From an uncultured Selenomonadaceae bacterium (lineage in GTDB: Bacteria; Bacillota; Negativicutes; Selenomonadales; Selenomonadaceae): DNA of 30,252 nucleotides. Numbering within the stretch: the first letter of the stretch is position 1; every line of letters begins with the position of its first letter. The notes beneath the pieces are model-generated. The model was not told the origin of the DNA and searched no databases. It saw only the letters and a list, made by a program, of their open reading frames with translations. Shown one piece after another: positions 1 to 14,372 of this stretch. The DNA is taken from positions 1 to 30,252 of the forward strand of contig CACZOL010000075.1 in assembly GCA_902782705.1 (NCBI GenBank), read 5' to 3'. The translations under genes and the position numbers were made by a program.

Positions 1-354
1 CGCCGCCGGATCGCCGTCCACCGAGCCGAAGGTTCCGTGGCCGGCCGCCAAAAGATAGCGCATGGAAAAATCCTGCGCCATACGGACGATCGCGTCGTAA
101 ACCGAGCTGTCGCCGTGCGGATGATATTTACCGAGAACCTCGCCGACGATACGCGCCGACTTCTTGTAAGGCTTCGTAGAGCCCATGCCCGCTTCCTGCA
201 TCGCGTACAGGATGCGCCGATGCACCGGCTTCAGACCGTCGCGGACGTCCGGCAGCGCGCGCGCCACGATGACGCTCATCGCATAGTCGATGTACGAAGT
301 CGACATGACGTCCGAAAGATTCACCGGAACGACTTTGTCCTTGCCAATCTCCAA
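1..354 (-). CDS. gyrA: DNA gyrase subunit A, 5' part (runs off the window edge)
   Basis: Manual minus-strand translation from TTG at 354: [46 protein letters not shown], the GyrA/ParC N-terminal signature. GAGGGTGAG lies upstream as RBS. Missing from the ORF track. GyrA is preferred over ParC from the origin context. Confidence 0.9.
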
Positions 355-423
355 AATCTCACCCTCATTCGTTTTCTGTGTCCCATATATAAATGTAAGA
401 AACTCATTTCGACAAGCATTTTA

Positions 424-432
424 TTATCCACA
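424..432 (+). promoter_or_regulatory. Perfect DnaA box upstream of gyrA
   Basis: TTATCCACA exact match, inside the palindrome TATCCAC-ACA-GTGGATA (425-441). Confidence 0.6.
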
Positions 433-438
433 CAGTGG

Positions 439-559
439 ATATGTGCCGCTAAGCTCGCACTTTCGCGCTCGCTAAGCGGTCACATTATACGCAAGGCATA
501 TGTGCCGCTAAACTCGCGCTTCGCTTTCAGCTTGCGCTCGTCAAGCGGACACATTATAC
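439..559. repeat. Two tandem imperfect palindromic (REP-like) units, 439-490 and 498-559
   Basis: Both begin ATATGTGCCGCTAA(G/A)CTCGC and end GCGCTCG(CT/TC)AAGCGG(T/A)CACATTATAC; the central loops differ. Confidence 0.85.
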
Positions 560-581
560 CACAAAAAAGCAGGCACGGCAA
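553..581 (-). promoter_or_regulatory. Putative sigma-A promoter for gyrA
   Basis: TTGCCG (581-576), 17 bp, TATAAT (558-553), with an extended -10 TGn. Confidence 0.65.
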
Positions 582-607
582 AGCCTTTCTATGCCTTGCC
601 GCGCCTG
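563..607 (-). terminator. Rho-independent terminator after tonB
   Basis: Imperfect 15-bp inverted repeat (570-584 and 593-607) followed by T6 on the minus strand. Confidence 0.7.
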
Positions 608-649
608 TATCCAACGTGTTTCACGTGCAACATGCAAACGTATATGCGA

Positions 650-1399
650 TTATTCCAGCCGGAAAGTAAAAGGCTGATACGCATAGCAGCGCACAGGACG
701 CCCGTAGCCGTCAAGCCCCGGGCTGAAGCTGAATCCTTCCGCCGCTTCCATCGCCGCGCGATCCAACGCCTCGTTTCCCGAAGACTCCACCACGTCCACA
801 TCGTCCACGCCGCCTTCTTTATTCAGCAGGAAACGCACGACCACCGTCCCCTCAATGCCTTTTCGCTGGGCCGAATAGGGATACTCCGGCGCACGGGCGC
901 TCGTGACGCTTGGCGGCACGGCAGGCGATTCGATGGCGTCGCTGGCGGGAGGAATGCCCTGCGTCTCCCCGCTGCCGTCGGGATTCCCCTCTACAGAGCC
1001 GTTGGCGGCGTCTCCGGGGCCTTCGGCTGCCGCTCCGCCGCCGGCAGGGGCGGGAGGCGCGGGAGTCTCCGCGGGCGGCTGCGGCGTCGGCGCAGGCTGC
1101 GGTTCCGGCGTCGGCGGTTCTTCCGGAGGCTTCTCCTCCAGGATATCGTCCGGCAGCGGCGGAGGCGTCTCTTCCGGAGGCTTGGGCGGCGCTTCCGGCT
1201 GCGGCGGTACGGGCGGCGTGGGGACCGCAGGCGTTTTCGGAGCCGTGGATGCGCCCGGGGCGCCCACCAGCGCCACATCGTAAACGGCTTCCAGCGGCTC
1301 GTTTTTTGCAATACGAAGCGCCGCGAATCCGAGCAGCGCGCACACAATGATATGCACGACTACGGAAGCGACAATGCCTTTAGCCGTATTCCCCGTCAT
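650..1399 (-). CDS. tonB: Energy transducer TonB
   Basis: N-terminal TM helix (IVASVVVHIIVCALLGF, with SxxxH), Pro/Glu-rich linker, C-terminal TonB domain (PEYPYSAQRKGIEGTVVVRFLLNKEGGV); follows exbD. Confidence 0.92.
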   Translation of the reverse strand: MTGNTAKGIVASVVVHIIVCALLGFAALRIAKNEPLEAVYDVALVGAPGASTAPKTPAVPTPPVPPQPEAPPKPPEETPPPLPDDILEEKPPEEPPTPEPQPAPTPQPPAETPAPPAPAGGGAAAEGPGDAANGSVEGNPDGSGETQGIPPASDAIESPAVPPSVTSARAPEYPYSAQRKGIEGTVVVRFLLNKEGGVDDVDVVESSGNEALDRAAMEAAEGFSFSPGLDGYGRPVRCYAYQPFTFRLE

Positions 1400-1809
1400 G
1401 ATCCGCCTTCCTTATCCGTCGCGAGCCCCACGCGCGAAATCCCCGCCTTGCGGAACGAATCCAGCAAATGGATGACGGCGCGATACGGAACGCCCTCGTC
1501 GGCCCGAATGATCACGGCGAAATTCTCGTCCCGCTTCCGCTCCTCTTTCGCCTTTTCCATCAGCTCGTTTTCCTTGATGAGCTTATCCTGCAGCCAATAC
1601 ACGCCGTCCCTTTTGACGGTGACGGAAAATTTCGCCGCGCTTTGCGACTGCGTTTCGGTCGCGACGGGGAGCTTGACCGGAATCGTCCGCAGCTCGCTCA
1701 TATACATGGTGCTGACGATGAAAAAAATCAACAGCAGGAAAATCATGTCGATCATCGGGCTGAGCATAAGCTGCGGCGCGCTCTGCCCGCGTTTCTTCAG
1801 CTTGATCAT
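1396..1809 (-). CDS. exbD: Biopolymer transporter ExbD
   Basis: LSPMIDMIFLLLIFFIVST TM motif and IIRADEGVPY...LLDSFRKAGISRVGLAT C-terminus. Confidence 0.92.
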   Translation of the reverse strand: MIKLKKRGQSAPQLMLSPMIDMIFLLLIFFIVSTMYMSELRTIPVKLPVATETQSQSAAKFSVTVKRDGVYWLQDKLIKENELMEKAKEERKRDENFAVIIRADEGVPYRAVIHLLDSFRKAGISRVGLATDKEGGS

Positions 1810-2474
1810 AGCTTCGCCCCCTGCGGCACGGGATGACCGTGCGCCACTGCGCGTTTCCGATCAAGATTTTTCGCGATTGCCTCCAAGAGCGTATTCCCAA
1901 TCTCTTCCACGTTCAGGGAAATCGCCTTGAGCCGACGCATGAAATAAGCGTACATGCAGATAGCGACAATCGAGATGCAAAGGCCGAATACCGTGGTAAT
2001 CAACGCCTCGCCGATACCGGCGGTCACGGCCATCGGATTGTCCAGCCGCTGGCTGAAGCTGTTGAAGGAGGCAATCATGCCCGTCACCGTGCCGAGCAGA
2101 CCAAGCACCGGGGAAAGCGTTACGATCACGTTCAGATAATTGAGATTCCGCTCGAATTTATCCATGGCCCGTTCCGCCCGAACGCTGACGAAGTTCTCGA
2201 GGCGCTCGAAATTCCCGTGCCGCGCCATAACGATGGTGGCGAGCTTCGCCAGCTCGCCTTTCGTCGAATCAGCCAGCTGCTTCGCATTCCCCCAGTCGTC
2301 GCGTTCAATACAATCGCAGAACTCTCGCGTGAATGCCTTGCCGCTGTCATTCGTACGAAAGAACAGCCATCGCTCCACCGAGATGGCGACGGCAGCCAAG
2401 GAACAGAACAGCAGCGGGTACATCACAGGCCCGCCCTTGACAAAATAATCCAATCCGGCCGAAAAAATACTCAT
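1806..2474 (-). CDS. exbB: MotA/TolQ/ExbB proton channel protein
   Basis: GGPVMYPL, SPVLGLLGTVTGMI and GIGEALITTVFGL motifs. Start placed at ATG 2474 behind AGGAAGGAGA. Confidence 0.92.
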   Translation of the reverse strand: MSIFSAGLDYFVKGGPVMYPLLFCSLAAVAISVERWLFFRTNDSGKAFTREFCDCIERDDWGNAKQLADSTKGELAKLATIVMARHGNFERLENFVSVRAERAMDKFERNLNYLNVIVTLSPVLGLLGTVTGMIASFNSFSQRLDNPMAVTAGIGEALITTVFGLCISIVAICMYAYFMRRLKAISLNVEEIGNTLLEAIAKNLDRKRAVAHGHPVPQGAKL

Positions 2475-2531
2475 GACCAATCTCCTTCCTTATGTAAACC
2501 CAAAAATATATACGACATTCTACGATCCCCC

Positions 2532-2638
2532 CTTGTCGAGGGATTTTTTCGTCAGGCACGGAAAAGTGCTCGCAGTCGTAGTTGGAGCACTACGTCAAGA
2601 GCACTTTGACACAGCATGGCGGAAAAAGACCCGACAAG
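2532..2638. repeat. ~107-bp nested imperfect inverted repeat
   Basis: Arms CTTGTCG/CGACAAG (2532-2538, 2632-2638), AAAGTGCTC/GAGCACTTT (2563-2571, 2599-2607) and CGTAGT/ACTACG (2577-2582, 2589-2594). Confidence 0.7.
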
Positions 2639-2640
2639 AG

Positions 2641-3375
2641 CTATTCGCTATATCTCTTATAAATCGCTACCCCTACGGCGAAAAACAGCGCGCCCAATCC
2701 CGCCAATGTCAACACACTCTGCCAAAGGCCCGGCTCCCACGCCGCGCTTCGCATCATGCGGTTCAGCGCGCCGATCGGAAAAAACATCACGATATGCTGC
2801 GCAAAACGCGGCAGATTCTCCACGGGGAAAAACGAGCCGCCGAAAAACGTCATCGGCATGATCAAAAAATTATTCACAAACGCCACGTCGTCGGGCTGCG
2901 ACACAAGCAATCCCACGATCACGCCGAGCGCCGCGAAACAGAACGAGCCGAGGAAAGCGCCTGCCACAAGCGTCGCCCGAAGCTCAATCGCCCCGAATAC
3001 GCCCCACGCCATCAAGAATATCAGCGAGCCGAAAAAGACGCCGCGCGCCACGCCCGCGAGCACGATTCCCAAGATGACCTCCGCCGCCCGTACCGGCGAA
3101 AGCACGAGACTTTGAAAAACATGGTAATACATCCGGCCCACGCTGATGGAACCGGCGGTCTGCTGGAAAGCGTTGACCATGATCGTAATGGCGATGATGC
3201 CGCCCGCCAGGAACGGCAGATACCCGCCGGCAACCTCGACGCGGTTTCCCAGTCCGTAGCCGAACGCGAACAGATAGATGAACGGGGAAACGATGCTGGA
3301 AAAAATATAACCCATGCGTCCGATTTTTTTGTAGAGCATGAGCATCTCGCGGCTGAATACCGCATACGCGCCCAC
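2641..3375 (-). CDS. ABC-2 type exporter permease (NodJ/DrrB-like)
   Basis: Six hydrophobic segments, YLPFLAGGIIAITIM and PMTFFGGSFFPVENLP motifs typical of ABC-2 permeases; GTG start abuts the ATPase stop. Confidence 0.85.
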   Translation of the reverse strand: MGAYAVFSREMLMLYKKIGRMGYIFSSIVSPFIYLFAFGYGLGNRVEVAGGYLPFLAGGIIAITIMVNAFQQTAGSISVGRMYYHVFQSLVLSPVRAAEVILGIVLAGVARGVFFGSLIFLMAWGVFGAIELRATLVAGAFLGSFCFAALGVIVGLLVSQPDDVAFVNNFLIMPMTFFGGSFFPVENLPRFAQHIVMFFPIGALNRMMRSAAWEPGLWQSVLTLAGLGALFFAVGVAIYKRYSE

Positions 3376-4110
3376 TTACAGATCACCTCCGCGAGACAAG
3401 CGGATAAAGAGTTTTTCGAGATCGTCCGCGCCGTTTCCGATACGCTGCTGCAATTTTTCCTTCGTCTCGCTGACGACGAGACTGCCTTCCCTGAAAATCG
3501 CAATCCGGTTGCAAAGTTTTACCGCTTCTTCCATATAATGCGTCGTAAAGATGATCGTCTTCCCTTCCGCTGAGAGCGAGGAAATAATATCCCAAATCCC
3601 CTGCCGCACATCGGGGTCCAATCCGACGGTCGGCTCGTCCAGCAGAAGCAATTCCGGATTCGGCATCAGGCTCCTGGCTATCAACACCCGCCGCATCATG
3701 CCGCCGGACAGGCTCCGAATCGTCTTGGACTGCATATCTTCCAGCTCGAACCGCGCGATGGTCGCCTCCACCGTCTCCGAAAGAGCCTCCACGCCAAAGA
3801 GGCGCCCATACATCGTGAGGGCCTCCCGCACCGTGAACTCGCGCTCCAGATTGTTGTCCTGCGGCACGAGCCCCACAAGCCGCTTCAATGTCGTCGTGCG
3901 CTCCGCCGCGTTCTGCCCGAAAATGAACAGTTCGCCCTCTTCCGGCCTGACAAGTCCGGCAATAATCTTCATCAAAGTCGTCTTGCCCGCGCCGTTCGGC
4001 CCCAAAAGACCGAACACGCCGCCTGCCGGTATGGACAAATCCAGCGGCTGGAGGACCGTCGCGCCCTTATAGATTTTCTTGATCCCTCTTGCCTCTATCG
4101 CATATCGCAT
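3376..4110 (-). CDS. ABC-2 type exporter ATP-binding protein (NodI/DrrA-like)
   Basis: Walker A GPNGAGKT, signature LSGGM, Walker B LLLLDEPT, H-loop TTHYMEEA. True start taken as MRYAIE at 4110; the longer track ORF overlaps the upstream permease. Confidence 0.88.
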   Translation of the reverse strand: MRYAIEARGIKKIYKGATVLQPLDLSIPAGGVFGLLGPNGAGKTTLMKIIAGLVRPEEGELFIFGQNAAERTTTLKRLVGLVPQDNNLEREFTVREALTMYGRLFGVEALSETVEATIARFELEDMQSKTIRSLSGGMMRRVLIARSLMPNPELLLLDEPTVGLDPDVRQGIWDIISSLSAEGKTIIFTTHYMEEAVKLCNRIAIFREGSLVVSETKEKLQQRIGNGADDLEKLFIRLSRGGDL

Positions 4111-4121
4111 AAAGATTATCC

Positions 4122-5159
4122 TCAACGCATTACGTTGTGCGCGCGCCGAAGCAGCCAGAGAAAATACGGCGTCCCGATGAAAGCCGTCATGATACCGACG
4201 CGCACTTCCATCGGCGCGGCAATCACGCGGCCGACCGTATCGCAGAATACGAGAAACGCGCCGCCCGCCAACAAACTTGCCGGAAGCAGCAGCCGATGAT
4301 CGGGTCCGACAATGAGCCGCATCATGTGCGGCACGACAAGCCCTACGAACCCGATATTCCCGCTGATACAGACGCCCGTCGCCGTAACCAGCGAAGCGAT
4401 GGTCATCATGCCGAGCCGATACTTGGCGACCGGCATTCCGACGGCTTTCGCCTCGACGTCGCCGAGCACGAGAATATTCAAATGACGCGCCATCAGGATC
4501 ATCACGGCGGCGCCCAAGAGGATCGGCCCCGCGCCCATCGCCACATGTTCCCATCGCCGATAGTCAAGACCGCCGATCGTCCAGAAAAGATACTGCTGCA
4601 GTTTCTGCTCGCTGATTACGGTGAGGATGCCCGCCGTAACCGCGCCAAGCATCATTCCTACAACGACGCCGGAAAGAAGCAGCGTCATCATCGGAATCTT
4701 CCCGTGCCGCATCGCGAGAAAAACCGTCAGCGTCACAGCGGCCAACGATCCGACCAGCGCGCATATCGGCAGCGCGAAAAGGCTCACTTCACTGAGCCCG
4801 AACGCAATCGCCGCCACCGCGCCCACCGCCGCGCCGCTGGACACGCCGATGATGCCGGGATCGGCGAGCGGGTTGCTGAAGATTCCCTGCATGACCGTCC
4901 CCGAGGCGCCAAGTCCCGCGCCGACCATGAGCCCGACCAGCGTTCGCGGCAGACGGATATGAAAAAGCACCGCTTCCTGCTCCGGCGTCACAACGACGTC
5001 CGCAAAAAAGGGCAATCCCGCATACTGGCAAAACAGCGCGACAATATTCTTGAACGGAATATCAATCTGCCCCCACGACATCGAAAGCAGCGCAACAAGA
5101 ACAAATACCGCCGCCATCAGCAGGAAAAACACCTTGGGCGGGATACGTCCGATTTTCAT
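4122..5159 (-). CDS. FecCD/BtuC/HmuU-family ABC importer permease
   Basis: IRLPRTLVG, MQGIFSNPLADPGIIGVSSGA and GFVGLVVPHMMRLIVGPDHR motifs. Confidence 0.93.
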   Translation of the reverse strand: MKIGRIPPKVFFLLMAAVFVLVALLSMSWGQIDIPFKNIVALFCQYAGLPFFADVVVTPEQEAVLFHIRLPRTLVGLMVGAGLGASGTVMQGIFSNPLADPGIIGVSSGAAVGAVAAIAFGLSEVSLFALPICALVGSLAAVTLTVFLAMRHGKIPMMTLLLSGVVVGMMLGAVTAGILTVISEQKLQQYLFWTIGGLDYRRWEHVAMGAGPILLGAAVMILMARHLNILVLGDVEAKAVGMPVAKYRLGMMTIASLVTATGVCISGNIGFVGLVVPHMMRLIVGPDHRLLLPASLLAGGAFLVFCDTVGRVIAAPMEVRVGIMTAFIGTPYFLWLLRRAHNVMR

Positions 5160-6004
5160 TTTTCGTCCTCCCCGTTCCCAAGAATGGCATGTAAAAGCGC
5201 GGCTCTTTGCCCGTCGTCCGGCGGCGGCTCAGCAAAAACTTCCGCCGTCCCGGTCAACGGATTGCGCACGACGCGAACCGGAACGCCGTAACAACGGCTC
5301 AAATACTCCGACGTCATGACTTCTTCCGGCTTTCCGTCGGCTACGATACGATGATCCCCGACGAGCATCAGTCGCGAACAAAACTTCGCCGCCAAAGAAA
5401 GCTCATGGATAACCATCAAGACCGTTTTCCCCTGCGCGCAAAGCTCACGACAAAAACGAAAGATTTCCTCTTGATAGAATATATCCAAGCCCGTCGCCGG
5501 TTCGTCGAGAAACAGGAGCGGCGTCTGCTGCGCGAGCACTTTCGCCAAGAGCACGCGCTGCCGCTGTCCGCCGGAAATCATATCCACCGAACGATGGGCA
5601 AGATCCCGCACGCCGGTATATTCCATACAGGCGTCCACGATCCTCTCGTCCGCAGGACCTTCCTTTTCCCACCACTCCAGATGCGGATACCGCCCCGTCG
5701 TCACGATCTCCCGCACGCTGTATCCGAAAGCGATCTCCACATTCTGCTGCAAATATGCGACTTCAAGCGCAAATTCCCGACTCGTCATCGTCGCTGCATC
5801 GCGTCCGTTCAGCAGCACGCTGCCCGCGCGCGGGTCGAGGATTCCCCGAAGCGTCTTTAAAAGCGTGGATTTGCCCGCGCCGTTCGGCCCGATCAGTCCG
5901 ACCATTTCCCCCCGGCGCACTTCAAAAGACACGTCCGACAAAACATTTTTATGTCTTCCGTATCCGGCGGCAAGCTTCTCCGCCTGCAAAACAATTTCAT
6001 TCAT
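5156..6004 (-). CDS. FecE/BtuD/HmuV-family ABC importer ATPase
   Basis: GPNGAGKSTLL, ISGGQRQR, LFLDEPATGLD, VIHELSLAAKFC; overlaps the permease by 4 nt. Confidence 0.93.
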   Translation of the reverse strand: MNEIVLQAEKLAAGYGRHKNVLSDVSFEVRRGEMVGLIGPNGAGKSTLLKTLRGILDPRAGSVLLNGRDAATMTSREFALEVAYLQQNVEIAFGYSVREIVTTGRYPHLEWWEKEGPADERIVDACMEYTGVRDLAHRSVDMISGGQRQRVLLAKVLAQQTPLLFLDEPATGLDIFYQEEIFRFCRELCAQGKTVLMVIHELSLAAKFCSRLMLVGDHRIVADGKPEEVMTSEYLSRCYGVPVRVVRNPLTGTAEVFAEPPPDDGQRAALLHAILGNGEDEK

Positions 6005-6009
6005 TCCCT

Positions 6010-7011
6010 TTACTCCTCGCCGGAAAACGAGATGTGGCGGTTATCCTCCTGACGAAACGCGTCGCCGTAAGCGATAAAAGCAAGCTCTTGGACGCCGAAG
6101 ACGAAATCCTGGGAGCCGTTATAGATGTAACTCTCCCTTGGGTACTCCAGCCGCCGATTCTGTATGGCCTTTATCGTCTGGAGCGAAGGATCGTCAAGAT
6201 AGCTCCGGATAAACGCTTCCGTATCGAAATTTCCTTTATCGTCATAATTCGGCAGGAGCAAAATATCCGGATTGCTTTTGACAAGAAGCTCCTTTGTCAA
6301 AGGCTGGCCGTTTTTCAGTCCCACCGCCGCCGCACCGTTGACGACGCCCGCCCGCGTGCACATATCGTCGAACGCGCTTCCAATACCGCCGTAACTGGTC
6401 ATCACGGACAGCAGCACGACGCGCTTCCTCTCTTCGGCGGGAATCCGATCGATGCGGACAGTGATATCCCGCAGGATCTCTTCCATGCGGTCGAGCACCT
6501 TCGTCCCTCGCTCCGATTCCCCGACGCTGTCTGCAATCAAGCGAATACAGGCCCGGATATCCTCATAGGACTCGCCACGTCCCGCCACCACCACGGGAAT
6601 CCCCAGTGCGCGCAGCGCCGCTACCTGCTCCATATCCGTCCAGCCGTTGGCGATGACAAGATCGGGGCGCCAGCCCACGATTTGCTCCACCGTGGGATTT
6701 CCAACCTTCTCCGGCACGCGCTTCGCCTTTTCCACGACCGACGATTCTTTCGGATCGTCCAGGAAGCGGCTGATGGCCGCCATACGGTTGGTAGGCACCA
6801 CGCCCAGCAAGATCTCGTCCGTATATATGGCCAAAGATATAATCCGCTCGGGTTTTTGGGGAATCCGCACCGCCGTCCCTTGGGCGTCCGTTACGGTATA
6901 GCCTTCTTCTCCGCCTGACCTCTGAGACGGAGGCTTTCCACAGGACACGGTGAGCAGCACGGCAAAAAATACGAACACCGCGCATAAGCTGTACATGAGC
7001 CGACGCTTCAT
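6010..7011 (-). CDS. Fe/heme/B12-type (class III) substrate-binding lipoprotein 2
   Basis: Lipoprotein signal MKRR...LLTVSC, TVTDAQGTAVRIPQKPERIISL, EQIVGWRPDLVI. Start at ATG 7011 behind AAAAGGGG. Confidence 0.88.
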   Translation of the reverse strand: MKRRLMYSLCAVFVFFAVLLTVSCGKPPSQRSGGEEGYTVTDAQGTAVRIPQKPERIISLAIYTDEILLGVVPTNRMAAISRFLDDPKESSVVEKAKRVPEKVGNPTVEQIVGWRPDLVIANGWTDMEQVAALRALGIPVVVAGRGESYEDIRACIRLIADSVGESERGTKVLDRMEEILRDITVRIDRIPAEERKRVVLLSVMTSYGGIGSAFDDMCTRAGVVNGAAAVGLKNGQPLTKELLVKSNPDILLLPNYDDKGNFDTEAFIRSYLDDPSLQTIKAIQNRRLEYPRESYIYNGSQDFVFGVQELAFIAYGDAFRQEDNRHISFSGEE

Positions 7012-7153
7012 TATGACGTCCCCTTTTCTCTTAAAATCCCAAAGCGTCGAAGCACTTTGCCCTCCCAATGGGTATGCCCTTTGCGAGGCGGCCGATGGAC
7101 TCCCGGAGAGGGCCCGCCGAAGGCGGTGGGTATAATTTTGTGTCGTTGCGTTT

Positions 7154-7182
7154 ACGTTACCTTACACCTTTGAAGATGTCAA
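7154..7182 (-). promoter_or_regulatory. Putative internal sigma-A promoter upstream of SBP2
   Basis: TTGACA (7182-7177), 17 bp, TAACGT (7159-7154), with an AT-rich upstream tract. Confidence 0.6.
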
Positions 7183-7185
7183 TAA

Positions 7186-7219
7186 AATATTCAATATAAT
7201 ATTCGATTTAATGTTCAGA
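7186..7219. promoter_or_regulatory. Three direct repeats at 12-bp period, candidate regulator site
   Basis: AATATTCAAT (7186), AATATTCGAT (7198), AATGTTCAGA (7210), immediately upstream of the -35. Confidence 0.5.
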
Positions 7220-7221
7220 TT

Positions 7222-8214
7222 TCATTTTTTCGGCACAGCCGACAGATAGCGGTTCTTCGGCTGCGCAAAGGTGTCTCCGTAAAGGATGTACGCCGCTTCC
7301 TGCGCGCCGAACACGACGTTTTGCGAGATATTGTAAATATAATGCGCCCACGGATAGCAGACGTGCCCATCGCGCACGGCTTTCATGACTTGCAGCGACG
7401 GATCGCTCATATATTCCGCGCCATACTGCTGTTCTTTCGAGGCAGGATCCTCGTAGGACGGCAGGAAAATATAGTCGGGATTGCAGGCGATGAACTGCTC
7501 CTTCGTCATGGCCTCGCCGTTCCTGTTCCCCGCCAAAGCTTTCGCGTTCCTTGCGCCGGCATAAGAAAGCACGTCGTCGATCATACAGCCCGCGCCGCCG
7601 TAAGCCGGCATGATGGAAACCAGCGCCACCGTCGCGCCTTTTTTCTCTTTCGGGACCTCCTCGATCCGCTTCATCAAAGCGGCCAGTTCTTCGTCCATCA
7701 TCGCCACGAGCTTCTCGCCCCGCTCCTTCTCGTCCACGGCGGCCGCAATCAGCCGTACCGTGTCGCGCACCTCCGCAAAATTTCGCGGCGCTTTGCAGGT
7801 GACCACCGGGATTCCGAGATCGCGAAGCGCCGCAACCTTTTCAATCGGAATCCACGTCTGTACCAGCACGAGGTCGGGCTTCAGGGCCGCCACCGTCTCC
7901 ACCGAAGGATTTCGTATGATACGGTTCGGGATTTTCTCCGCAAGCTCGGTAACATTCGATCGCTTCGGATCGACAAAAGCCTCGTTGACGGCGACCATGC
8001 GCTCCGTCTCCACGAGTCCGAGCAGCACTTCGTCCGTTCCCGTCGTCACGGATACGATGCGTTTCGGCTTTGCCGGAATTTTTACCTCGTCCCCGCGCAC
8101 GTCGGTGACTACATGAAACTCCTCCGCCTTCGTCTGCACCGTCCCCGGCCCGCAAGCGGCACACAAAAGACACAGCGCCAAAAGGCAAAGCAAGCAAGCC
8201 GCCTTCTTAAGCAT
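7222..8214 (-). CDS. Fe/heme/B12-type (class III) substrate-binding lipoprotein 1
   Basis: Signal MLKKAACLLCLLALCLLCAAC, VTDVRGDEVKIPAKPKRIVSV, ETVAALKPDLVL; paralog of SBP2. Start 8214 overlaps the cobN stop. Confidence 0.88.
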   Translation of the reverse strand: MLKKAACLLCLLALCLLCAACGPGTVQTKAEEFHVVTDVRGDEVKIPAKPKRIVSVTTGTDEVLLGLVETERMVAVNEAFVDPKRSNVTELAEKIPNRIIRNPSVETVAALKPDLVLVQTWIPIEKVAALRDLGIPVVTCKAPRNFAEVRDTVRLIAAAVDEKERGEKLVAMMDEELAALMKRIEEVPKEKKGATVALVSIMPAYGGAGCMIDDVLSYAGARNAKALAGNRNGEAMTKEQFIACNPDYIFLPSYEDPASKEQQYGAEYMSDPSLQVMKAVRDGHVCYPWAHYIYNISQNVVFGAQEAAYILYGDTFAQPKNRYLSAVPKK

Positions 8215-11200
8215 CTGCCCGTTCCTCCATTTCACCTTCGACCTCCAGATACAGCTTGACAAGAGATTCCTGCATTTCCTGCGACGCGTTCCAGAGTCCG
8301 CGCTTCTGCGCCTCCAGCAATGTCTCCGCGATACGCCGGAGCGCCCAAGGATTCACATGGTTCATCCAGGCCCGCATCTCCGGATCAAGCGCATACCGCT
8401 TCGCATATTCTTCATACATCCAATCGTCCATGATATTGCTGGTTGCGTCCCACTCATAGCTATGGGCGACGACGTTCGCCAGCTCGGAGGCGCCTTTGTA
8501 TCCGTGACGCTTCATGCCGTCAATGAACTTCGGATTCATGATCTCGCCCCGGAAAATGCGTTTTGCCTCTTCGCGTACCGACCGCACCTGCACCCTGCGG
8601 CGATCGCTGGTATCCGTGCTGTACGATTTCGGCGCTTTTCCGGTCAGCGCGCGCACCGTCGCAATCATACCGCCGTGATAGGCGTTGAAGTCGTCACAGC
8701 TGAACATGTGCACTTCACGGTTATCTTCGTTCTTGATCGTGGCCTCGATTCCCCGCATACGGCGCTTGAAAACCTCCGGCTCGTATGCCCCGGGCAGCGC
8801 GTCAGAGCCGTAAGCCGTTCCCGAATAACGTACATAAACGTCCGCGATATCGCTCAGCTTTTGCCACTCATGCGTTGCGAGGATTGCCTGGACGCCCGCG
8901 CCATAAGCGCCCGGCGGATCGCCGAAAATCCGGTACGACGCCCGCGCCCACGCTTCCTCATGACTTGCGCCGTTCTCTTCCAGCCATGCGGCGTCTGCGA
9001 GAACATGCTTGCGGACGAAATTCTCTTCTTCCGGTTCGTCAAGCTCCCGCACCATCCGAACCGCCTCGTCCATCCAGCGGATCGCGTCGGGCATGCTGTC
9101 GCGGAAAAGCCCGCTGATACGCCCCGTGACGTCAATCCTCGGCCGTCCGAGCTCCGAAAGAGGAATGATCTCAAGTCCGACGACGCGCATAGACGGACGC
9201 TGCCAAACCGGGCGCACGCCCATCAAATACAAATACTCCGCCACGCATTGCCCATGGCTTCGCATATTGGCGCCCGACCAAAAGACCACGCCCACCGACT
9301 CCGGATAGTGGCCCTCGTCCGCAATAAAGCGTTTGATGGTCTCGTCGCCCAGCGTCTTCCCCATAGCCCAAGCTGCTTGGGTCGGCATCGTCCTCGGGTC
9401 CAATCCATAGAAATTTCTGCCCGTGGGCAGAAGCGCGTCCCCGTTCGTCGTCGGCGCACCTGCCTGACTCGGCTCGATATACTGCCCTTCCAAAGCCCGG
9501 AGCGTGTTTGAAAGCTCCTCTTCCGTACGCCGAAGCTTCGGCGCAAGGGTTTCGGATACCGTGCGCAGGATCTGTTCCATGCGTACCCGCCCGTCCTCGG
9601 AAATATTTGCAAGTTCCGGCAAGGAAAGCGCGTCTTTCACCGACGCTTCGGCATATCCGCGCTCGCCCATTTTTGCGATCATGTCATGCATGACTTGCTC
9701 CGCCGCGTCAAGCTTTTTCCCGTAGGATTCCCCGTCGGGGGCCAGCGCTGCACTTTCCTCCAAAGCGCGTTCATAGTCCAGTCCTTTCTCGGCCATGATG
9801 AGACGGATCAACGATTCCCTGTCCCCGTTATCCAGCCGCAGAAGCGCCATCAGGAACTCCGTGAAATCCTCGCCCGTCGGCATCTGCCCGAGAATATGGA
9901 GTCCGGTACGGATCTGCATATTCTTGATATCCGTCACGGCATTGTGCAGCTCGCCTACATAAGCGTCAAAATCCTCTTTCTCGGCAATATGGTCGAAATG
10001 GCACGCCGCAGCTTTTTCGCGCACAATGTTCTTTGCTTCGTCAAGACTGTCCGGTTGATTCGTGCGGAAATGGGCATACTCGTCCAGCGCGCTCTCCAGT
10101 TCAGCCATCTCCGCATACACGCCGGACAAGCGCATCGGCGGCGAAAGATGGCTGACGAGGCACGCCGCGCCGCGGCGTTTTGCCTGAAGCCCTTCTCCGA
10201 CAATCGTGATCCAGTACGGATAAATGTCCGGCAAATCCCCCAGGGCGATATCCGGATAGCACCCCTCGGAAAGACCGGTGCTCTTGCCCGGCAGCCACTC
10301 CAAAGAGCCGTGCGTTCCCACATGAATGACCGCGTCCGCATGCCAAAGGTCGCGCACCCAATGATAAAACCCGATATAATGATGCGGCGGCGCAAGATCC
10401 GGCGAATGCAGGATCTTGCCCGGGTCCTCGCCAAACCCGCGCGGCGGCTGCACCGTGAGAAACACGTTTCCGTTCATCGTGCCGGGAATCAAAAGATCTT
10501 CGTCATAAAGGAACACTTCTCCCGGCGCTTCTCCCCAGTCGACCGTCATTCTCTCCCGCGTCTCGGCAGGCAGTTTCTTGAAAAACGAGCGGTATTCCTC
10601 CGCCGTGAGACGTCCCGCCGCTGCTTCCGCCTGCTCCTCGCTGAGCATCTCACGATCGTTTGTCACATGGGCCGTCAGGATGTCTATCAGTTCCTGTCCG
10701 CTCTCCGGCACGAAATCCACCTGATATCCGGCTTCCTTCATCGCCGCCAGCATACGCCGTACGCTTTCCGGCGTATCCAGTCCCGCCGCGCTTCCGATAT
10801 TGGAATTTGTCGGCGGGTAATTGTGAAGCACGATCGCGATCCGCTTCTCGTCATTCTTCTTGCGTGAAAGCGCCGCCCATTTGCGCGCTTTCGACGCCAC
10901 CCGATGAACCCGCTCCGGGAGCGGCACAAAAGACGCGACGTCATCTTCTTTCCACGTCTTCGCCGCAATCGGCACGGAATGGATCGTCCCGTCAAACTCC
11001 GGCAGGCTCACGCTGATCGAGACTGCGGAAGGCTCAAGTCCCGCAGGCGACTCTGCCCAGCTCTCCTCGCTCCCGAGAATCGTATACGCCGTAAGAATCG
11101 GCACGCCGATCCTGGACAAATCCTCCGTCGCCGTTCCCGAAAGGTGCAAAGAAAACTTCGTCGTTGTCACAAGCACATCGACCAGCCGCTTCCCGTCGCG

Positions 11201-11905
11201 GTAAAAACAGCGGTCGACAGCATCCATGAAAGACGGCGACTGCAAACTCTCGTTACGAAACGTATTCGTGAAGACCGCGATGACGTTCATGCCCTCGTCT
11301 TCCAAGGCCCGAACCAGCGAGGTGTGATAAGCAAATTCCCCGGAAATCCACTCCGAGCGGTAAAAAATCACGCCGGCCGTCGGCTTCGCCGCGTCGTAAT
11401 GCGTGGAAAGATATCCGCCGATATCCTCCGGACTGCCCTCCCAATCGGGATGCCAGACGCCGTTCCACGGCAGAGGCGTCGGCGGCGCAGCTTTGTATGG
11501 GGTACCGCCGAACTCGCTGCCCAGCCAAAGCAGCAAATTGTAATGATTTTCCGCCCCGTCATAGCGAAAATATTGCCATGCCGTTACCGCCTGCGCATCC
11601 GAAACGCCGGCCATCACCTGATCGTCGCCAGCGTTTTCCACCAAAATCAGATAGCGGCTTCCCCGCTGCCGCAAAAAACGTACCGCCCGCTGCAAAAACG
11701 GATTGTCCAGCCCGCTTCCCATCCACAGGAAAAGGCTGAACTCCGCCTCGGACACGGCGTTTTTTATTTCCCCGGAAAAATCCGTCTGACCGTTTGCCGA
11801 AAAACAACCGGCCGCAAGCTCCGGCGCCTCTGCCGTCAGTCGCTTGCATTCCTGAGTCAGAAGGTTATAACTGCGCGCCACATTCGTGCATACAAAAATC
11901 TTCAT
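8207..11905 (-). CDS. cobN: CobN/magnesium-chelatase-H family protein (cobaltochelatase CobN-like)
   Basis: ~1230 aa with LHNYPP, VQPPRG, HVGTHGSLEWLPGK, LLPTGRNFY, NPKFIDGMKRHGYKGA and NPWAL motifs. Start is ATG 11905 (GGGG RBS) or 11917. Family is certain; the biochemical role is not. Confidence 0.9.
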   Translation of the reverse strand: MKIFVCTNVARSYNLLTQECKRLTAEAPELAAGCFSANGQTDFSGEIKNAVSEAEFSLFLWMGSGLDNPFLQRAVRFLRQRGSRYLILVENAGDDQVMAGVSDAQAVTAWQYFRYDGAENHYNLLLWLGSEFGGTPYKAAPPTPLPWNGVWHPDWEGSPEDIGGYLSTHYDAAKPTAGVIFYRSEWISGEFAYHTSLVRALEDEGMNVIAVFTNTFRNESLQSPSFMDAVDRCFYRDGKRLVDVLVTTTKFSLHLSGTATEDLSRIGVPILTAYTILGSEESWAESPAGLEPSAVSISVSLPEFDGTIHSVPIAAKTWKEDDVASFVPLPERVHRVASKARKWAALSRKKNDEKRIAIVLHNYPPTNSNIGSAAGLDTPESVRRMLAAMKEAGYQVDFVPESGQELIDILTAHVTNDREMLSEEQAEAAAGRLTAEEYRSFFKKLPAETRERMTVDWGEAPGEVFLYDEDLLIPGTMNGNVFLTVQPPRGFGEDPGKILHSPDLAPPHHYIGFYHWVRDLWHADAVIHVGTHGSLEWLPGKSTGLSEGCYPDIALGDLPDIYPYWITIVGEGLQAKRRGAACLVSHLSPPMRLSGVYAEMAELESALDEYAHFRTNQPDSLDEAKNIVREKAAACHFDHIAEKEDFDAYVGELHNAVTDIKNMQIRTGLHILGQMPTGEDFTEFLMALLRLDNGDRESLIRLIMAEKGLDYERALEESAALAPDGESYGKKLDAAEQVMHDMIAKMGERGYAEASVKDALSLPELANISEDGRVRMEQILRTVSETLAPKLRRTEEELSNTLRALEGQYIEPSQAGAPTTNGDALLPTGRNFYGLDPRTMPTQAAWAMGKTLGDETIKRFIADEGHYPESVGVVFWSGANMRSHGQCVAEYLYLMGVRPVWQRPSMRVVGLEIIPLSELGRPRIDVTGRISGLFRDSMPDAIRWMDEAVRMVRELDEPEEENFVRKHVLADAAWLEENGASHEEAWARASYRIFGDPPGAYGAGVQAILATHEWQKLSDIADVYVRYSGTAYGSDALPGAYEPEVFKRRMRGIEATIKNEDNREVHMFSCDDFNAYHGGMIATVRALTGKAPKSYSTDTSDRRRVQVRSVREEAKRIFRGEIMNPKFIDGMKRHGYKGASELANVVAHSYEWDATSNIMDDWMYEEYAKRYALDPEMRAWMNHVNPWALRRIAETLLEAQKRGLWNASQEMQESLVKLYLEVEGEMEERADA

Positions 11906-11931
11906 ATTTTTCCCCATCTTTCAATCAAGAC

Positions 11932-11953
11932 GAGGGCTGCCGAAGCAGCCCTC
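11932..11953 (-). other. Perfect 9-bp hairpin with UUCG loop between the small gene and cobN
   Basis: GAGGGCTGC-TTCG-GCAGCCCTC on the minus strand, no U-tract. Confidence 0.7.
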
Positions 11954-11959
11954 TGGGTT

Positions 11960-12274
11960 TCATGCCTTTTTGTGCTTTCCTGCCGTACCGGACATGATGC
12001 GCTCATACATCGAGTGAATCTCGTCCGCCGACGCGCCTTTCGCTTTTGCCGCCTTTACATGGACGATTGCGCTCTTGTATTTCTTGTGCGCCTCGTCGTT
12101 GGGGATTTTGTCGGTGTCCTTGAAGGGATCGAAGGCTATCACGCGCTTGAAGATCGCGTGAATCTCCTCAGAGCTCTTACCCTTCGCCTTGGCTGCCGCC
12201 GCGTGCCGCTTCGCGCGGTCGTAGCGGATCTTGCCGTGGGGTCCCTCTGGAATTTTCGGTGCCGGATGTGCCAT
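11960..12274 (-). CDS. Hypothetical 104-aa His/Lys/Ala-rich protein with two internal repeats
   Basis: ATG 12274 behind a strong RBS GGAAGGAGG; fills the gap between receptor and cobN. Repeats AAKAKGKSSEEIHAIFKR and AAKAKGASADEIHSMYER. Confidence 0.85.
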   Translation of the reverse strand: MAHPAPKIPEGPHGKIRYDRAKRHAAAAKAKGKSSEEIHAIFKRVIAFDPFKDTDKIPNDEAHKKYKSAIVHVKAAKAKGASADEIHSMYERIMSGTAGKHKKA

Positions 12275-12326: not shown

Positions 12327-14372
12327 TTAAAATTTTTGTGTGAAACTAAAAAGGAAGTTGCTGGGCGCTGAATAGTATTTGGAAGACGTATGGGAAATAA
12401 TGTCATGTCGGTCAAAGATGTTGTTCAGCGTCAGCTCGAACTCGGTTTTATCTGTCGGTGCATACCCCAACGTAAACGTCGTCAGGAAATACGGTTTTAC
12501 ATGGTAAGAATGTTGTTTAGTTGGCGTCATCACACGCGCTCCGAGAAACGAAGCACTGAGTGAAGCGCGCAATTTATCTTTCTTATAACTAATTTCTCCC
12601 GTAAGCTGGATTTTTCCAAACTTTCTATCCCAGTACGTTTTATCTGCATTCGCTTTAACCTTTGGATTTTGCCACGTCAGACCTGCATTATAGGAAAAAC
12701 CATTCTTGCTCTCTACTGCGTAAGAAAGCTCCAATCCCTCGTTCTTGAAATCTTCGTTTTTAAAAGTCCAATCGCCAGGGCCGTTATAAGTTGCAGAGAT
12801 GTTATCCTTTATGCGCATGACGAAAAGCGACGCCTTCCACGAATGTTTCCCCGTTATGTTTTTCCAGCCAATTTCGTAGTTGATACCCTTCTGTGGCTTG
12901 AGATCGGCAGGTTCAACCTCTTTGTATATGGCGTAAAGCGTCGGCATAACGAAGGACTGGGAAATATTTAAGAAGAGGCTATTCGTATCGTTCATTTTAT
13001 GCAGGAACTGTCCCGACGCACTGAAATTGCTGAAATTTTTCCCGCCGGAAGCACCTGTAGACCATGTTTCGCGCCCGCCAATGATGAACGAATTTTTCTT
13101 GTCGATTTTTTGATCCCATTGCGCGAAAACGCCCCAATTATTCCTGTCCTCATGCTTTACATCGGTCCCAGTTGTTTTAAATGTCGCCAATGCCCGAAAA
13201 GATTCATGTTGACCATTAAATCCCGCTGTTAACGTCCCTTTCCCTATTTTCCAATTCCGTTGCACATCTAAACCATAAGTACTGTTCTTTTCACGCGTAT
13301 CATACCACCGTGAAGCCACTGCCGGTACTCCGTAGGTATTGGTACGATATGTCGGACCATGTGCGCTCGTCATTCCCGTATTGAAGTAAGCACTGCCCTT
13401 CCAGTTTTTGTCACGATAATTAAGTTGCGCCATGTCACGCACTGTAGCATACTCACGCAAATAGAACGGACTTCCAACCAAATACTGATTTGCAGGATTT
13501 GTTGCACTTGCAATCCGGCGATCAAACTTTGCGCTCGTCTCATAATGGCCATACAGGAAACTCAGATGATCATTGAACTTGTAACTGATTGTCCCGCTCT
13601 GGTTCAAAATGTCCCGCCAATCCGTCCTCAAGTTGCCGCCAGTTACTTCTGAATAAGTCGCCCCTTTTCGTTCTTGCCACGAGTTGCGGTCATAGGTGAC
13701 GACCAAGCCCTCGGCTCCTACGTTCAAGTGATATTTCTGTTGTCCATAGTTTCCATAACCTACGGTGACAGAATTTTTCGCTTCCGTTTTCGTAATAATA
13801 TTGATGACACCTGCCATCGCCTCGCTGCCGTACAGCACCGAGCCGCCGCCTTTAACCACTTCAATGCGCTCAATTGTGTCGGCGGCAATATCTTGTAAAT
13901 GATACTTGCCACGTTGAGCAATCGGATTGCCGTTTACAAGAACAAGCGTTCCATTGTCAGTTCCACGAATATTGGCATTATTGGACATAGTTCCCATATC
14001 TACGCCGAGCGGCCCGAACGCTTCGTACGCGAAACCATTAATCTTTTGAAGCGCCTCCGCCGCATTTTTCGCGCCGCTGTCTTTGATGTCTTCTTCAGTA
14101 ATGACTTCCGTGGCCATCGGCACGTCCACTTCACGCTTTTCCGTACGGGTAGCCGTGACTACCACTTCGCCCATGGTGTAGGCGGGCGTCTCCGACGCGG
14201 AGCTCTCCTCAGCTTTCGTCGTCGTTGCCGCCGCCTCAACTTCTGCGGCTTCTGCGGAAAGAGGAAGAATAATACCCCCCCCGAGGGCAATAATCCCTGC
14301 TAAGAGGACATTTCTGCTCTTCGCCCCAATTTTGCTCAGCGACTTTCTGCCGAGCTTCCGACTTGCTTTCAT
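12327..14372 (-). CDS. TonB-dependent outer-membrane receptor
   Basis: Signal peptide, TonB box region TMGEVVVTATRT, plug motifs NIRG and IERIEVVKGGGSVLYGSEAMAGVINIIT, C-terminal Phe (FSFTQKF). Confidence 0.93.
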   Translation of the reverse strand: MKASRKLGRKSLSKIGAKSRNVLLAGIIALGGGIILPLSAEAAEVEAAATTTKAEESSASETPAYTMGEVVVTATRTEKREVDVPMATEVITEEDIKDSGAKNAAEALQKINGFAYEAFGPLGVDMGTMSNNANIRGTDNGTLVLVNGNPIAQRGKYHLQDIAADTIERIEVVKGGGSVLYGSEAMAGVINIITKTEAKNSVTVGYGNYGQQKYHLNVGAEGLVVTYDRNSWQERKGATYSEVTGGNLRTDWRDILNQSGTISYKFNDHLSFLYGHYETSAKFDRRIASATNPANQYLVGSPFYLREYATVRDMAQLNYRDKNWKGSAYFNTGMTSAHGPTYRTNTYGVPAVASRWYDTREKNSTYGLDVQRNWKIGKGTLTAGFNGQHESFRALATFKTTGTDVKHEDRNNWGVFAQWDQKIDKKNSFIIGGRETWSTGASGGKNFSNFSASGQFLHKMNDTNSLFLNISQSFVMPTLYAIYKEVEPADLKPQKGINYEIGWKNITGKHSWKASLFVMRIKDNISATYNGPGDWTFKNEDFKNEGLELSYAVESKNGFSYNAGLTWQNPKVKANADKTYWDRKFGKIQLTGEISYKKDKLRASLSASFLGARVMTPTKQHSYHVKPYFLTTFTLGYAPTDKTEFELTLNNIFDRHDIISHTSSKYYSAPSNFLFSFTQKF

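Follow-up and report, generated by a model that had tools for sequence, protein, structure and literature searches.

What an exporter-type ATP-binding cassette (ABC) transporter does in the middle of an uptake operon is the question raised by a 30,252-nucleotide (nt) stretch of DNA from an uncultured Selenomonadaceae bacterium (GenBank assembly GCA_902782705.1, contig CACZOL010000075.1), which is referred to here, at its full length, as the window. Its genome is a metagenome-assembled genome (MAG) that is 78% complete. On the minus strand of the window, two genes encoding the ATPase and the permease of an ABC-2 transporter lie between the genes of a BtuCD/FecCD-type importer and those of ExbB, ExbD and TonB. 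Pairs of this kind recur in the tetrapyrrole uptake loci of Negativicutes. The explanation favoured here, though only tentatively, is that the pair is an optional outlet pump of the tetrapyrrole salvage operons, which would export a tetrapyrrole-type molecule.

The two genes and the importer gene that precedes them are arranged as follows.

4122-5159, minus strand: FecCD/BtuC-type importer permease (PF01032, 311 bits), with TGA as the stop codon
4111-4121, minus strand: spacer of 11 nt between the FecCD stop and the ABC-2 ATPase start, GGATAATCTTT, read directly from the sequence
3376-4110, minus strand: ABC-2 (type V) ATPase of 244 amino acids (aa), with ATG at 4110 (PF00005)
2641-3375, minus strand: ABC-2 permease of 244 aa, with GTG at 3375 (PF01061 and PF12698)

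The original prediction, made from this DNA alone, had the exporter ATPase starting 11 nt after the importer permease stop and the exporter permease abutting it, and both statements are borne out by the sequence. The GAGGA Shine-Dalgarno sequence of the ATPase gene overlaps the FecCD TGA, 9 nt before the ATG, and translational coupling of the ATPase to FecCD is a reasonable reading of this spacing. The GTG of the permease gene begins at the base right after the ATPase TAA, and a GGAGG motif is located 10 nt upstream. This start is considered correct because the permease homologues are 241-246 aa long (except for fragments and one entry of 276 aa) and share the consensus N-terminus MGWYAVF.

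All motifs of the ATPase are intact (Walker A GPNGAGKT, Q-loop VPQ, LSGG, Walker B LLLLDE and H-loop TTH). The permease exceeds the cut-offs of two Pfam models, PF01061 (65.7 bits; cut-off 26.9) and PF12698 (50.1 bits; cut-off 31.6). Scores against the NCBIfam models stay below cut-off for the ATPase (DrrA, 223 versus 312; NodI, 199-209 versus 424-549) and far below it for the permease (YadH-type PRK15066, 83 versus 225; NodJ, 60 versus 207; DrrB, 56 versus 223). The DrrA and NodI models align over only the first ~220 of ~300 positions, and the ATPase is a short form without the C-terminal domain. The AlphaFold2 model of the permease, built from 21 homologues (pLDDT 79.8, pTM 0.81), contains an N-terminal interface helix, six transmembrane helices (TM1-TM6) and short re-entrant helices between TM5 and TM6, with almost no periplasmic loops. 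Its top Foldseek matches in the PDB are KpsM, Wzm, ABCH, NosY, TarG, PmtCD and ABCG (TM-scores of 0.6-0.73, probability 1.00). A profile of the permease gave only weak KpsM and ABCH matches among PDB sequences, and the ESM Atlas gave only generic ABC-2 clusters. No match of the permease to CcmB (PF03379) was found at E <= 0.001, and its type V fold, in which loops are minimal, is not that of an HrtB/MacB/FtsX-type permease with a periplasmic domain. Judged by motifs and model, the pair is a type V (ABC-2) ABC transporter with a catalytically competent-looking ATPase.

Several type V exporters (Wzm-Wzt, KpsMT, TarGH and PmtCD, and by sequence DrrAB, NodIJ and YadGH) resemble the pair in PF01061/PF12698 content, in fold and in having separate, abutting genes for an ATPase and a permease of ~245 aa. 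The pair differs from DrrAB, NodIJ and YadGH in falling under all NCBIfam equivalog and subfamily cut-offs and in lacking the C-terminal extension of the ATPase, and its context is tetrapyrrole uptake rather than polysaccharide, drug or Nod-factor export.

The relatives of the pair were examined in 33 genome loci (cited below by L numbers) that were annotated by tblastn, clustering of open reading frames and Pfam/NCBIfam searches of cluster representatives, with heuristic calling of the reading frames; the trees come from quick searches and carry SH-aLRT values as their sole support. All named permease homologues of at least 51% identity are from Negativicutes, and outside this set the identity falls to 36%; the family was thus found in Negativicutes only. 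The permease tree contains a clade of lineages A and B (SH-aLRT 98) and a separate clade C (100). Lineage A (100) is nested in B, which is a grade, and the window permease is placed in lineage A with a support of 100. By sequence, the window pair belongs to this Negativicutes tetrapyrrole-locus ABC-2 family, whose lineages A, B and C are defined here.

The gene directly before the ABC-2 ATPase encodes FecCD or FecE in 18 of the 28 loci in which an upstream gene is visible. Since carrier genomes contain only 2-11 FecCD genes each, the adjacency of pair and importer is not a matter of chance. The synteny is held across 44-70% protein identity, three lineages and many genera.

Lineage B loci contain the genes for a substrate-binding protein (SBP), FecCD, FecE, the ABC-2 ATPase, the ABC-2 permease, Flavodoxin_3, ChuW/HutW, a further SBP, a TonB-dependent receptor and ChaN, in that order. 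The ChuW/HutW protein scores 490 bits to TIGR04107, above the cut-off of 400, and at least 24 B-type genes are located within 6 kb of ChuW. From this gene content, the lineage B loci are assigned to heme uptake and anaerobic heme degradation. They have the same receptor, binding protein, FecCD/FecE, ChuW/HmuW and HmuF-type flavodoxin as the hmuTRUV-hmuW-hmuF operon of F. nucleatum (PMC10404700), whose published gene list names no ABC-2 pair, whereas the Negativicutes loci have this pair between the importer and the flavodoxin. No ChuW is present in the window, and none was found in its 78%-complete genome.

The neighbours of lineage A pairs, in loci of the corrinoid type, include CobN, ChlI/ChlD, a NifH-like gene, two nitrogenase-component-1-like genes, a cytoplasmic CbiK and CbiZ, as well as methylmalonyl-CoA mutase with MeaB and a module of the energy-coupling factor (ECF) type. 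Among the 20 sampled loci of lineage C, 12-13 either lie beside CobN-TonB-dependent receptor-ChlD-ChlI or are ordered CbiK, SBP, FecCD, FecE, ABC-2.

Rfam cobalamin riboswitches (RF00174) were detected in the lineage A loci L006, L009, L010, L011 and L018, and in the C loci L035, L036, L039 and L042 they precede the run of CbiK, SBP, FecCD, FecE and ABC-2 genes. B-type operons contained none in the Rfam scans. L009, L010 and L011 each have an aptamer immediately behind the ABC-2 permease gene and in front of the receptor or importer genes that come next, and in L010 and L018 an aptamer is also present upstream of the run that holds the pair, on the same strand. The clearest arrangement is that of L006, a close syntenic relative of the window, in which two tandem cobalamin aptamers (L006:2457-2942; 104 and 107 bits) head an operon encoding a TonB-dependent receptor, two SBPs, FecE, FecCD, the ABC-2 pair, ExbB, ExbD and TonB. 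This operon is self-contained, being flanked by anthranilate synthase and RF3 genes.

The remaining features of the window operon, including the exbB-exbD-tonB end, are listed below.

12327-14372, minus strand: BtuB-like TonB-dependent receptor with plug and barrel domains (top NCBIfam model TonB-B12, below cut-off)
11960-12274, minus strand: open reading frame of a small His-rich protein (82% identity in the same-genus locus L086)
8207-11917, minus strand: CobN-type chelatase subunit (PF02514; TIGR02257)
7222-8214, minus strand: binding lipoprotein SBP1 (Peripla_BP_2, PF01497), likely start MLKKAAC
6010-7011, minus strand: binding lipoprotein SBP2 (Peripla_BP_2, PF01497), likely start MKRRL
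5156-6004, minus strand: FecE/BtuD-type importer ATPase (PF00005), with a 4-nt overlap with the FecCD start
2531-2641, strand not assigned: dispersed repeat of ~105 nt, with dozens of copies in this and same-genus genomes
1806-2480, minus strand: exbB (PF01618)
1396-1809, minus strand: exbD (TolR/ExbD model)
650-1399, minus strand: tonB (TonB C-terminal model)

The window CobN scores 946 bits to the cobaltochelatase model TIGR02257, above the cut-off of 822. Against solved structures, it scores 745 bits to the CobN of M. tuberculosis (7c6o), 633 to another CobN (9uk9), 545 to ChlH and 400 to HmuS (9d26), and by this comparison it is far closer to cobaltochelatases than to the heme dechelatase HmuS. 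The window FecCD is placed in the same well-supported clade of the FecCD tree as that of L006, with 74% identity by tblastn, and the window receptor is 43% identical to a receptor of L016 that sits directly behind a cobalamin riboswitch. On account of these three relationships, the window operon most likely serves the salvage of a corrinoid or cobalt-tetrapyrrole and is not an HmuS-type heme system. The PDB matches of SBP1 and SBP2 are heme, siderophore and B12 binders, all distant, and indicate no substrate.

If the pair is an outlet pump, it would be made together with the TonB-dependent receptor and the BtuCD/FecCD-type importer, and it is probably expressed together with this type II importer. 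During import, the pump would expel from the cytoplasm or the inner membrane a tetrapyrrole that is unusable or must not accumulate. The outward direction is suggested by the fold, as the solved fold relatives that were found are exporters, extractors or the mechanotransducer NosFY, and the contexts point to a tetrapyrrole as the presumed cargo. In lineage A, the cargo might be a corrinoid, either an analogue of no use to the cell or material left over from remodelling or chelation. In lineage B, it might be heme or its anaerobic breakdown product, with anaerobilin and heme as the obvious candidates; anaerobilin has been termed cytotoxic (PMC10404700). The riboswitch-controlled relatives would be made when B12 is scarce, and expression under scarcity together with co-transcription with the importer would argue against a surplus valve and for the removal of analogues or leftovers.

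Two tetrapyrrole-handling pumps offer a comparison. CcmAB, a bacterial pump of the ABC-2 clan that acts in cytochrome c maturation, handles a tetrapyrrole (heme), but the window permease does not match CcmB, no ccm genes are located nearby, and the context is uptake and salvage instead of cytochrome maturation. The Gram-positive heme efflux systems HrtAB and PefAB-CD would share with the pair the ATP-driven relief from a toxic tetrapyrrole. HrtB, however, is a permease of the MacB/FtsX type (type VII), and the Hrt system, which is under the control of heme sensors, lies outside uptake operons, whereas the window permease is of type V and its pair is tightly linked to importer genes.

The papers searched contained no description of ABC-2 pairs in operons for the uptake of heme or B12, and none was found that joins "cobalamin riboswitch" with "ABC-2 type", or "CobN" with "TonB-dependent" and "ABC-2". 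The kind of protein is known; what was not found described in them is that type V exporters and type II tetrapyrrole importers are systematically paired in loci with B12 riboswitches. Operons for B12 and heme uptake are usually drawn as one-way, and here a pump with an exporter fold is recurrent, co-inherited and optional. If it clears unusable corrinoids, leftovers or heme breakdown products, it would explain the tolerance of promiscuous tetrapyrrole scavenging and would suggest how fragments of tetrapyrroles come to be released into gut and rumen communities.

Several observations weigh against the outlet-pump explanation. Four genomes of the same genus keep the junction of importer and ExbB without the ABC-2 pair. 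Their gene order is FecE, FecCD, ExbB and ExbD, followed by CbiZ, a TonB-dependent receptor and an SBP; their FecCD and ExbB proteins are 78-87% and 81% identical to those of the window, respectively, and the gap between FecCD and exbB is ~20-190 nt. By this comparison of genomes, the pair is dispensable. ChuW is present in 182 of 401 Negativicutes genomes and an A- or B-type pair in only ~46, and one family has ChuW in 56 of its 61 genomes and the ABC-2 family in none. About 8 of the 20 C-type loci are without tetrapyrrole genes nearby. The L006 operon encodes no tetrapyrrole-modifying enzyme, so a by-product as cargo would have to come from enzymes encoded elsewhere. RF00174 is absent from the window, both at the gathering score and at E <= 1, and its own operon is therefore riboswitch-less. 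Finally, type V transporters are not all exporters of small molecules, as exemplified by NosFY.

In the FecCD tree, the four pair-less copies are nested in a clade whose remaining members (the window, two Schwartzia, a Megamonas MAG, L005 and L006) all have the pair directly downstream, a topology most simply explained by one loss. For the window, Schwartzia and L005/L006, the ABC-2 tree is congruent with the FecCD tree, and importer and pump were thus inherited together. A recent transfer of the pair alone was considered and rejected, given a GC content like that of the neighbouring genes and the congruence of the two trees. A member of the family is found at E <= 1e-30 in 193 of the 401 Negativicutes genomes. 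From the natural loss and the census of ChuW and A/B carriers, the pair is an accessory and not a core part of the salvage operons. Its natural presence and absence within one genus provides ready strains for comparison.

A narrower version of the outlet-pump explanation, possible but doubtful, is that the pair specialises in the efflux or proofreading of corrinoids, being co-induced with a promiscuous importer of the B12 family and ejecting unusable analogues or remodelling leftovers. We know of no bacterial corrinoid exporter identified so far. If this version is true, the pair would offer a handle on the return of cobamides and their fragments to microbial communities, and its sisters in heme loci would be the missing outlet for anaerobilin.

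Of the rivals, the one that survives best, although it is itself unlikely, is that the pair is a general ABC-2 pump for a drug, sodium or a lipid, with no role in tetrapyrrole metabolism and linked to the uptake genes by chance or shared regulation. DrrAB, NodIJ and YadH are indeed the nearest named models, the C-type loci without tetrapyrrole genes fit such a pump, and the pair has been lost where the importer stayed. Every NCBIfam score is nevertheless far under its cut-off, and the conserved synteny described above is hard to reconcile with chance, given that FecCD neighbourhoods cover at most about 7% of a genome (an estimate from the 2-11 FecCD genes).

The original prediction had assigned the pair to the CobN-like enzyme, whose product (e.g., protoporphyrin IX, PPIX) or excess substrate it would remove. 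As a rival explanation, the export of PPIX or excess heme would require the CobN-like enzyme to act as a heme dechelatase of the HmuS type. The HmuS of Bacteroidota strips iron from heme and leaves PPIX of open fate (PMC12583661, PMC13227078), lineage A is nested inside the heme-locus lineage B, and in the window CobN and the pair share one co-oriented gene cluster. However, the suggested check of co-occurrence with CobN-like genes gave CobN within 10 kb in only 5 of 34 A/B loci, the window counted, and the transport operon is the same in L005 and L006, including the pair, but encodes no chelatase; for these two reasons, the pair is not tied to CobN as far as gene content tells. The cobaltochelatase-like scores of the window CobN and the linkage of related importers, receptors and pairs to cobalamin riboswitches also speak against this rival, and PPIX export is accordingly regarded as unlikely. 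The Bacteroidota hmu operon is similar to the window in combining a TonB-dependent receptor with a CobN-superfamily protein in its uptake locus, but the window CobN is much nearer to cobaltochelatase CobN and the window importer is of the BtuCD/FecCD type; no mention of export or efflux was found in the HmuS paper (PMC12583661). What stands of the earlier proposal is an intact transporter of the exporter type that is tied to uptake genes, and what falls is its link to CobN and PPIX. Homologues mostly occurring without cobN or uptake genes had been named as evidence against it; uptake genes proved common, with FecCD within 10 kb of the pair in 24 of 33 loci, and only CobN proved rare. Such pairs recur in B12-riboswitch-linked uptake loci of Negativicutes, which contradicts the companion statement that a plain B12 uptake operon has no clear role for an exporter.

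It is equally improbable that the pair is a second import route with an exporter fold, perhaps fed by the second binding protein. An importer with an exporter fold is known from mycobacteria, in which Rv1819c takes up B12. The window, L005/L006, L009 and several B loci have two binding proteins and two ABC systems per cluster, and the pair-less loci of the same genus show a single binding protein. The rule that two binding proteins accompany two ABC systems was nevertheless rejected, as a single binding protein is encoded in L010, L011, L017, L020-L024 and the C loci. Among the solved fold matches there is no bacterial type V importer, and in the model the permease is almost without periplasmic loops on which a binding protein could dock.

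That the pair is a mechanotransducer like NosFY, which would use ATP hydrolysis to load or unload a binding protein or a periplasmic CbiK on the periplasmic side while no small molecule crosses the membrane, is likewise improbable. NosY is among the top fold matches, and several C-type loci encode a signal-peptide CbiK adjoining the pair. However, no periplasmic partner is common to all three lineages, and the CbiK proteins beside A-type pairs lack a signal peptide.

The CbiK proteins differ among lineages in this respect. Those beside the A-type pairs of L008, L010 and L018 have no signal peptide, and the CbiK-family chelatases of lineage C in L039 (4315-5112), L035, L051 and L053 have clear ones and would be periplasmic. 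The genes of the latter follow cobalamin riboswitches and precede the genes for the SBP, FecCD, FecE and the ABC-2 pair.

The CobN gene itself varies within the genus of the window. The same-genus locus L086 (G406:C44:1-9000) encodes FecE, SBP1, the His-rich protein and the TonB-dependent receptor with no CobN or SBP2 between them, and its proteins are 80-86% and 67% identical to those of the window. From this layout, CobN is also a presence/absence element in the genus, and the gene for the His-rich protein remains beside that for the receptor.

The dispersed repeat of ~105 nt abuts the stop of the ABC-2 permease gene and occupies most of the 160-nt gap between this stop and exbB. Copies with 79-88% identity occur in the same genome and in same-genus genomes (24 are listed in G352 alone), and the repeat looks like a REP- or MITE-like element. 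The GC content of the window is 55-61% over positions 1-12000 (TonB to CobN) and 44-53% in the receptor gene and the remainder, with a sharp shift at ~12000.

Nitrogenase-like genes were observed in Schwartzia, Megamonas and related MAGs, in uptake loci of the corrinoid type, and may encode a nitrogenase-like tetrapyrrole reductase. In L001-L004 and L007, a NifH-like gene and two nitrogenase-component-1-like genes are located between ChlI/ChlD and FecCD (e.g., L001:1850-5322), and the NifH-like gene scores 392 bits to nifH and 377 to CfbC, both just under cut-off. Two loci, L018 (7617-10735) and L027 (5290-8386), contain one C-type and one A-type ABC-2 pair in tandem; in L018, the tandem pairs come after ChlI, ChlD, ExbB and ExbD, with a cobalamin riboswitch farther upstream on the same strand. 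In L010 (2166-10738), a cobalamin riboswitch is followed by the genes for a 557-aa protein without a Pfam match, a fused double ABC ATPase, CbiQ/EcfT, a beta-propeller protein of the pyrroloquinoline quinone (PQQ)-like type, CbiK and the ABC-2 pair, and this run may be a single operon.

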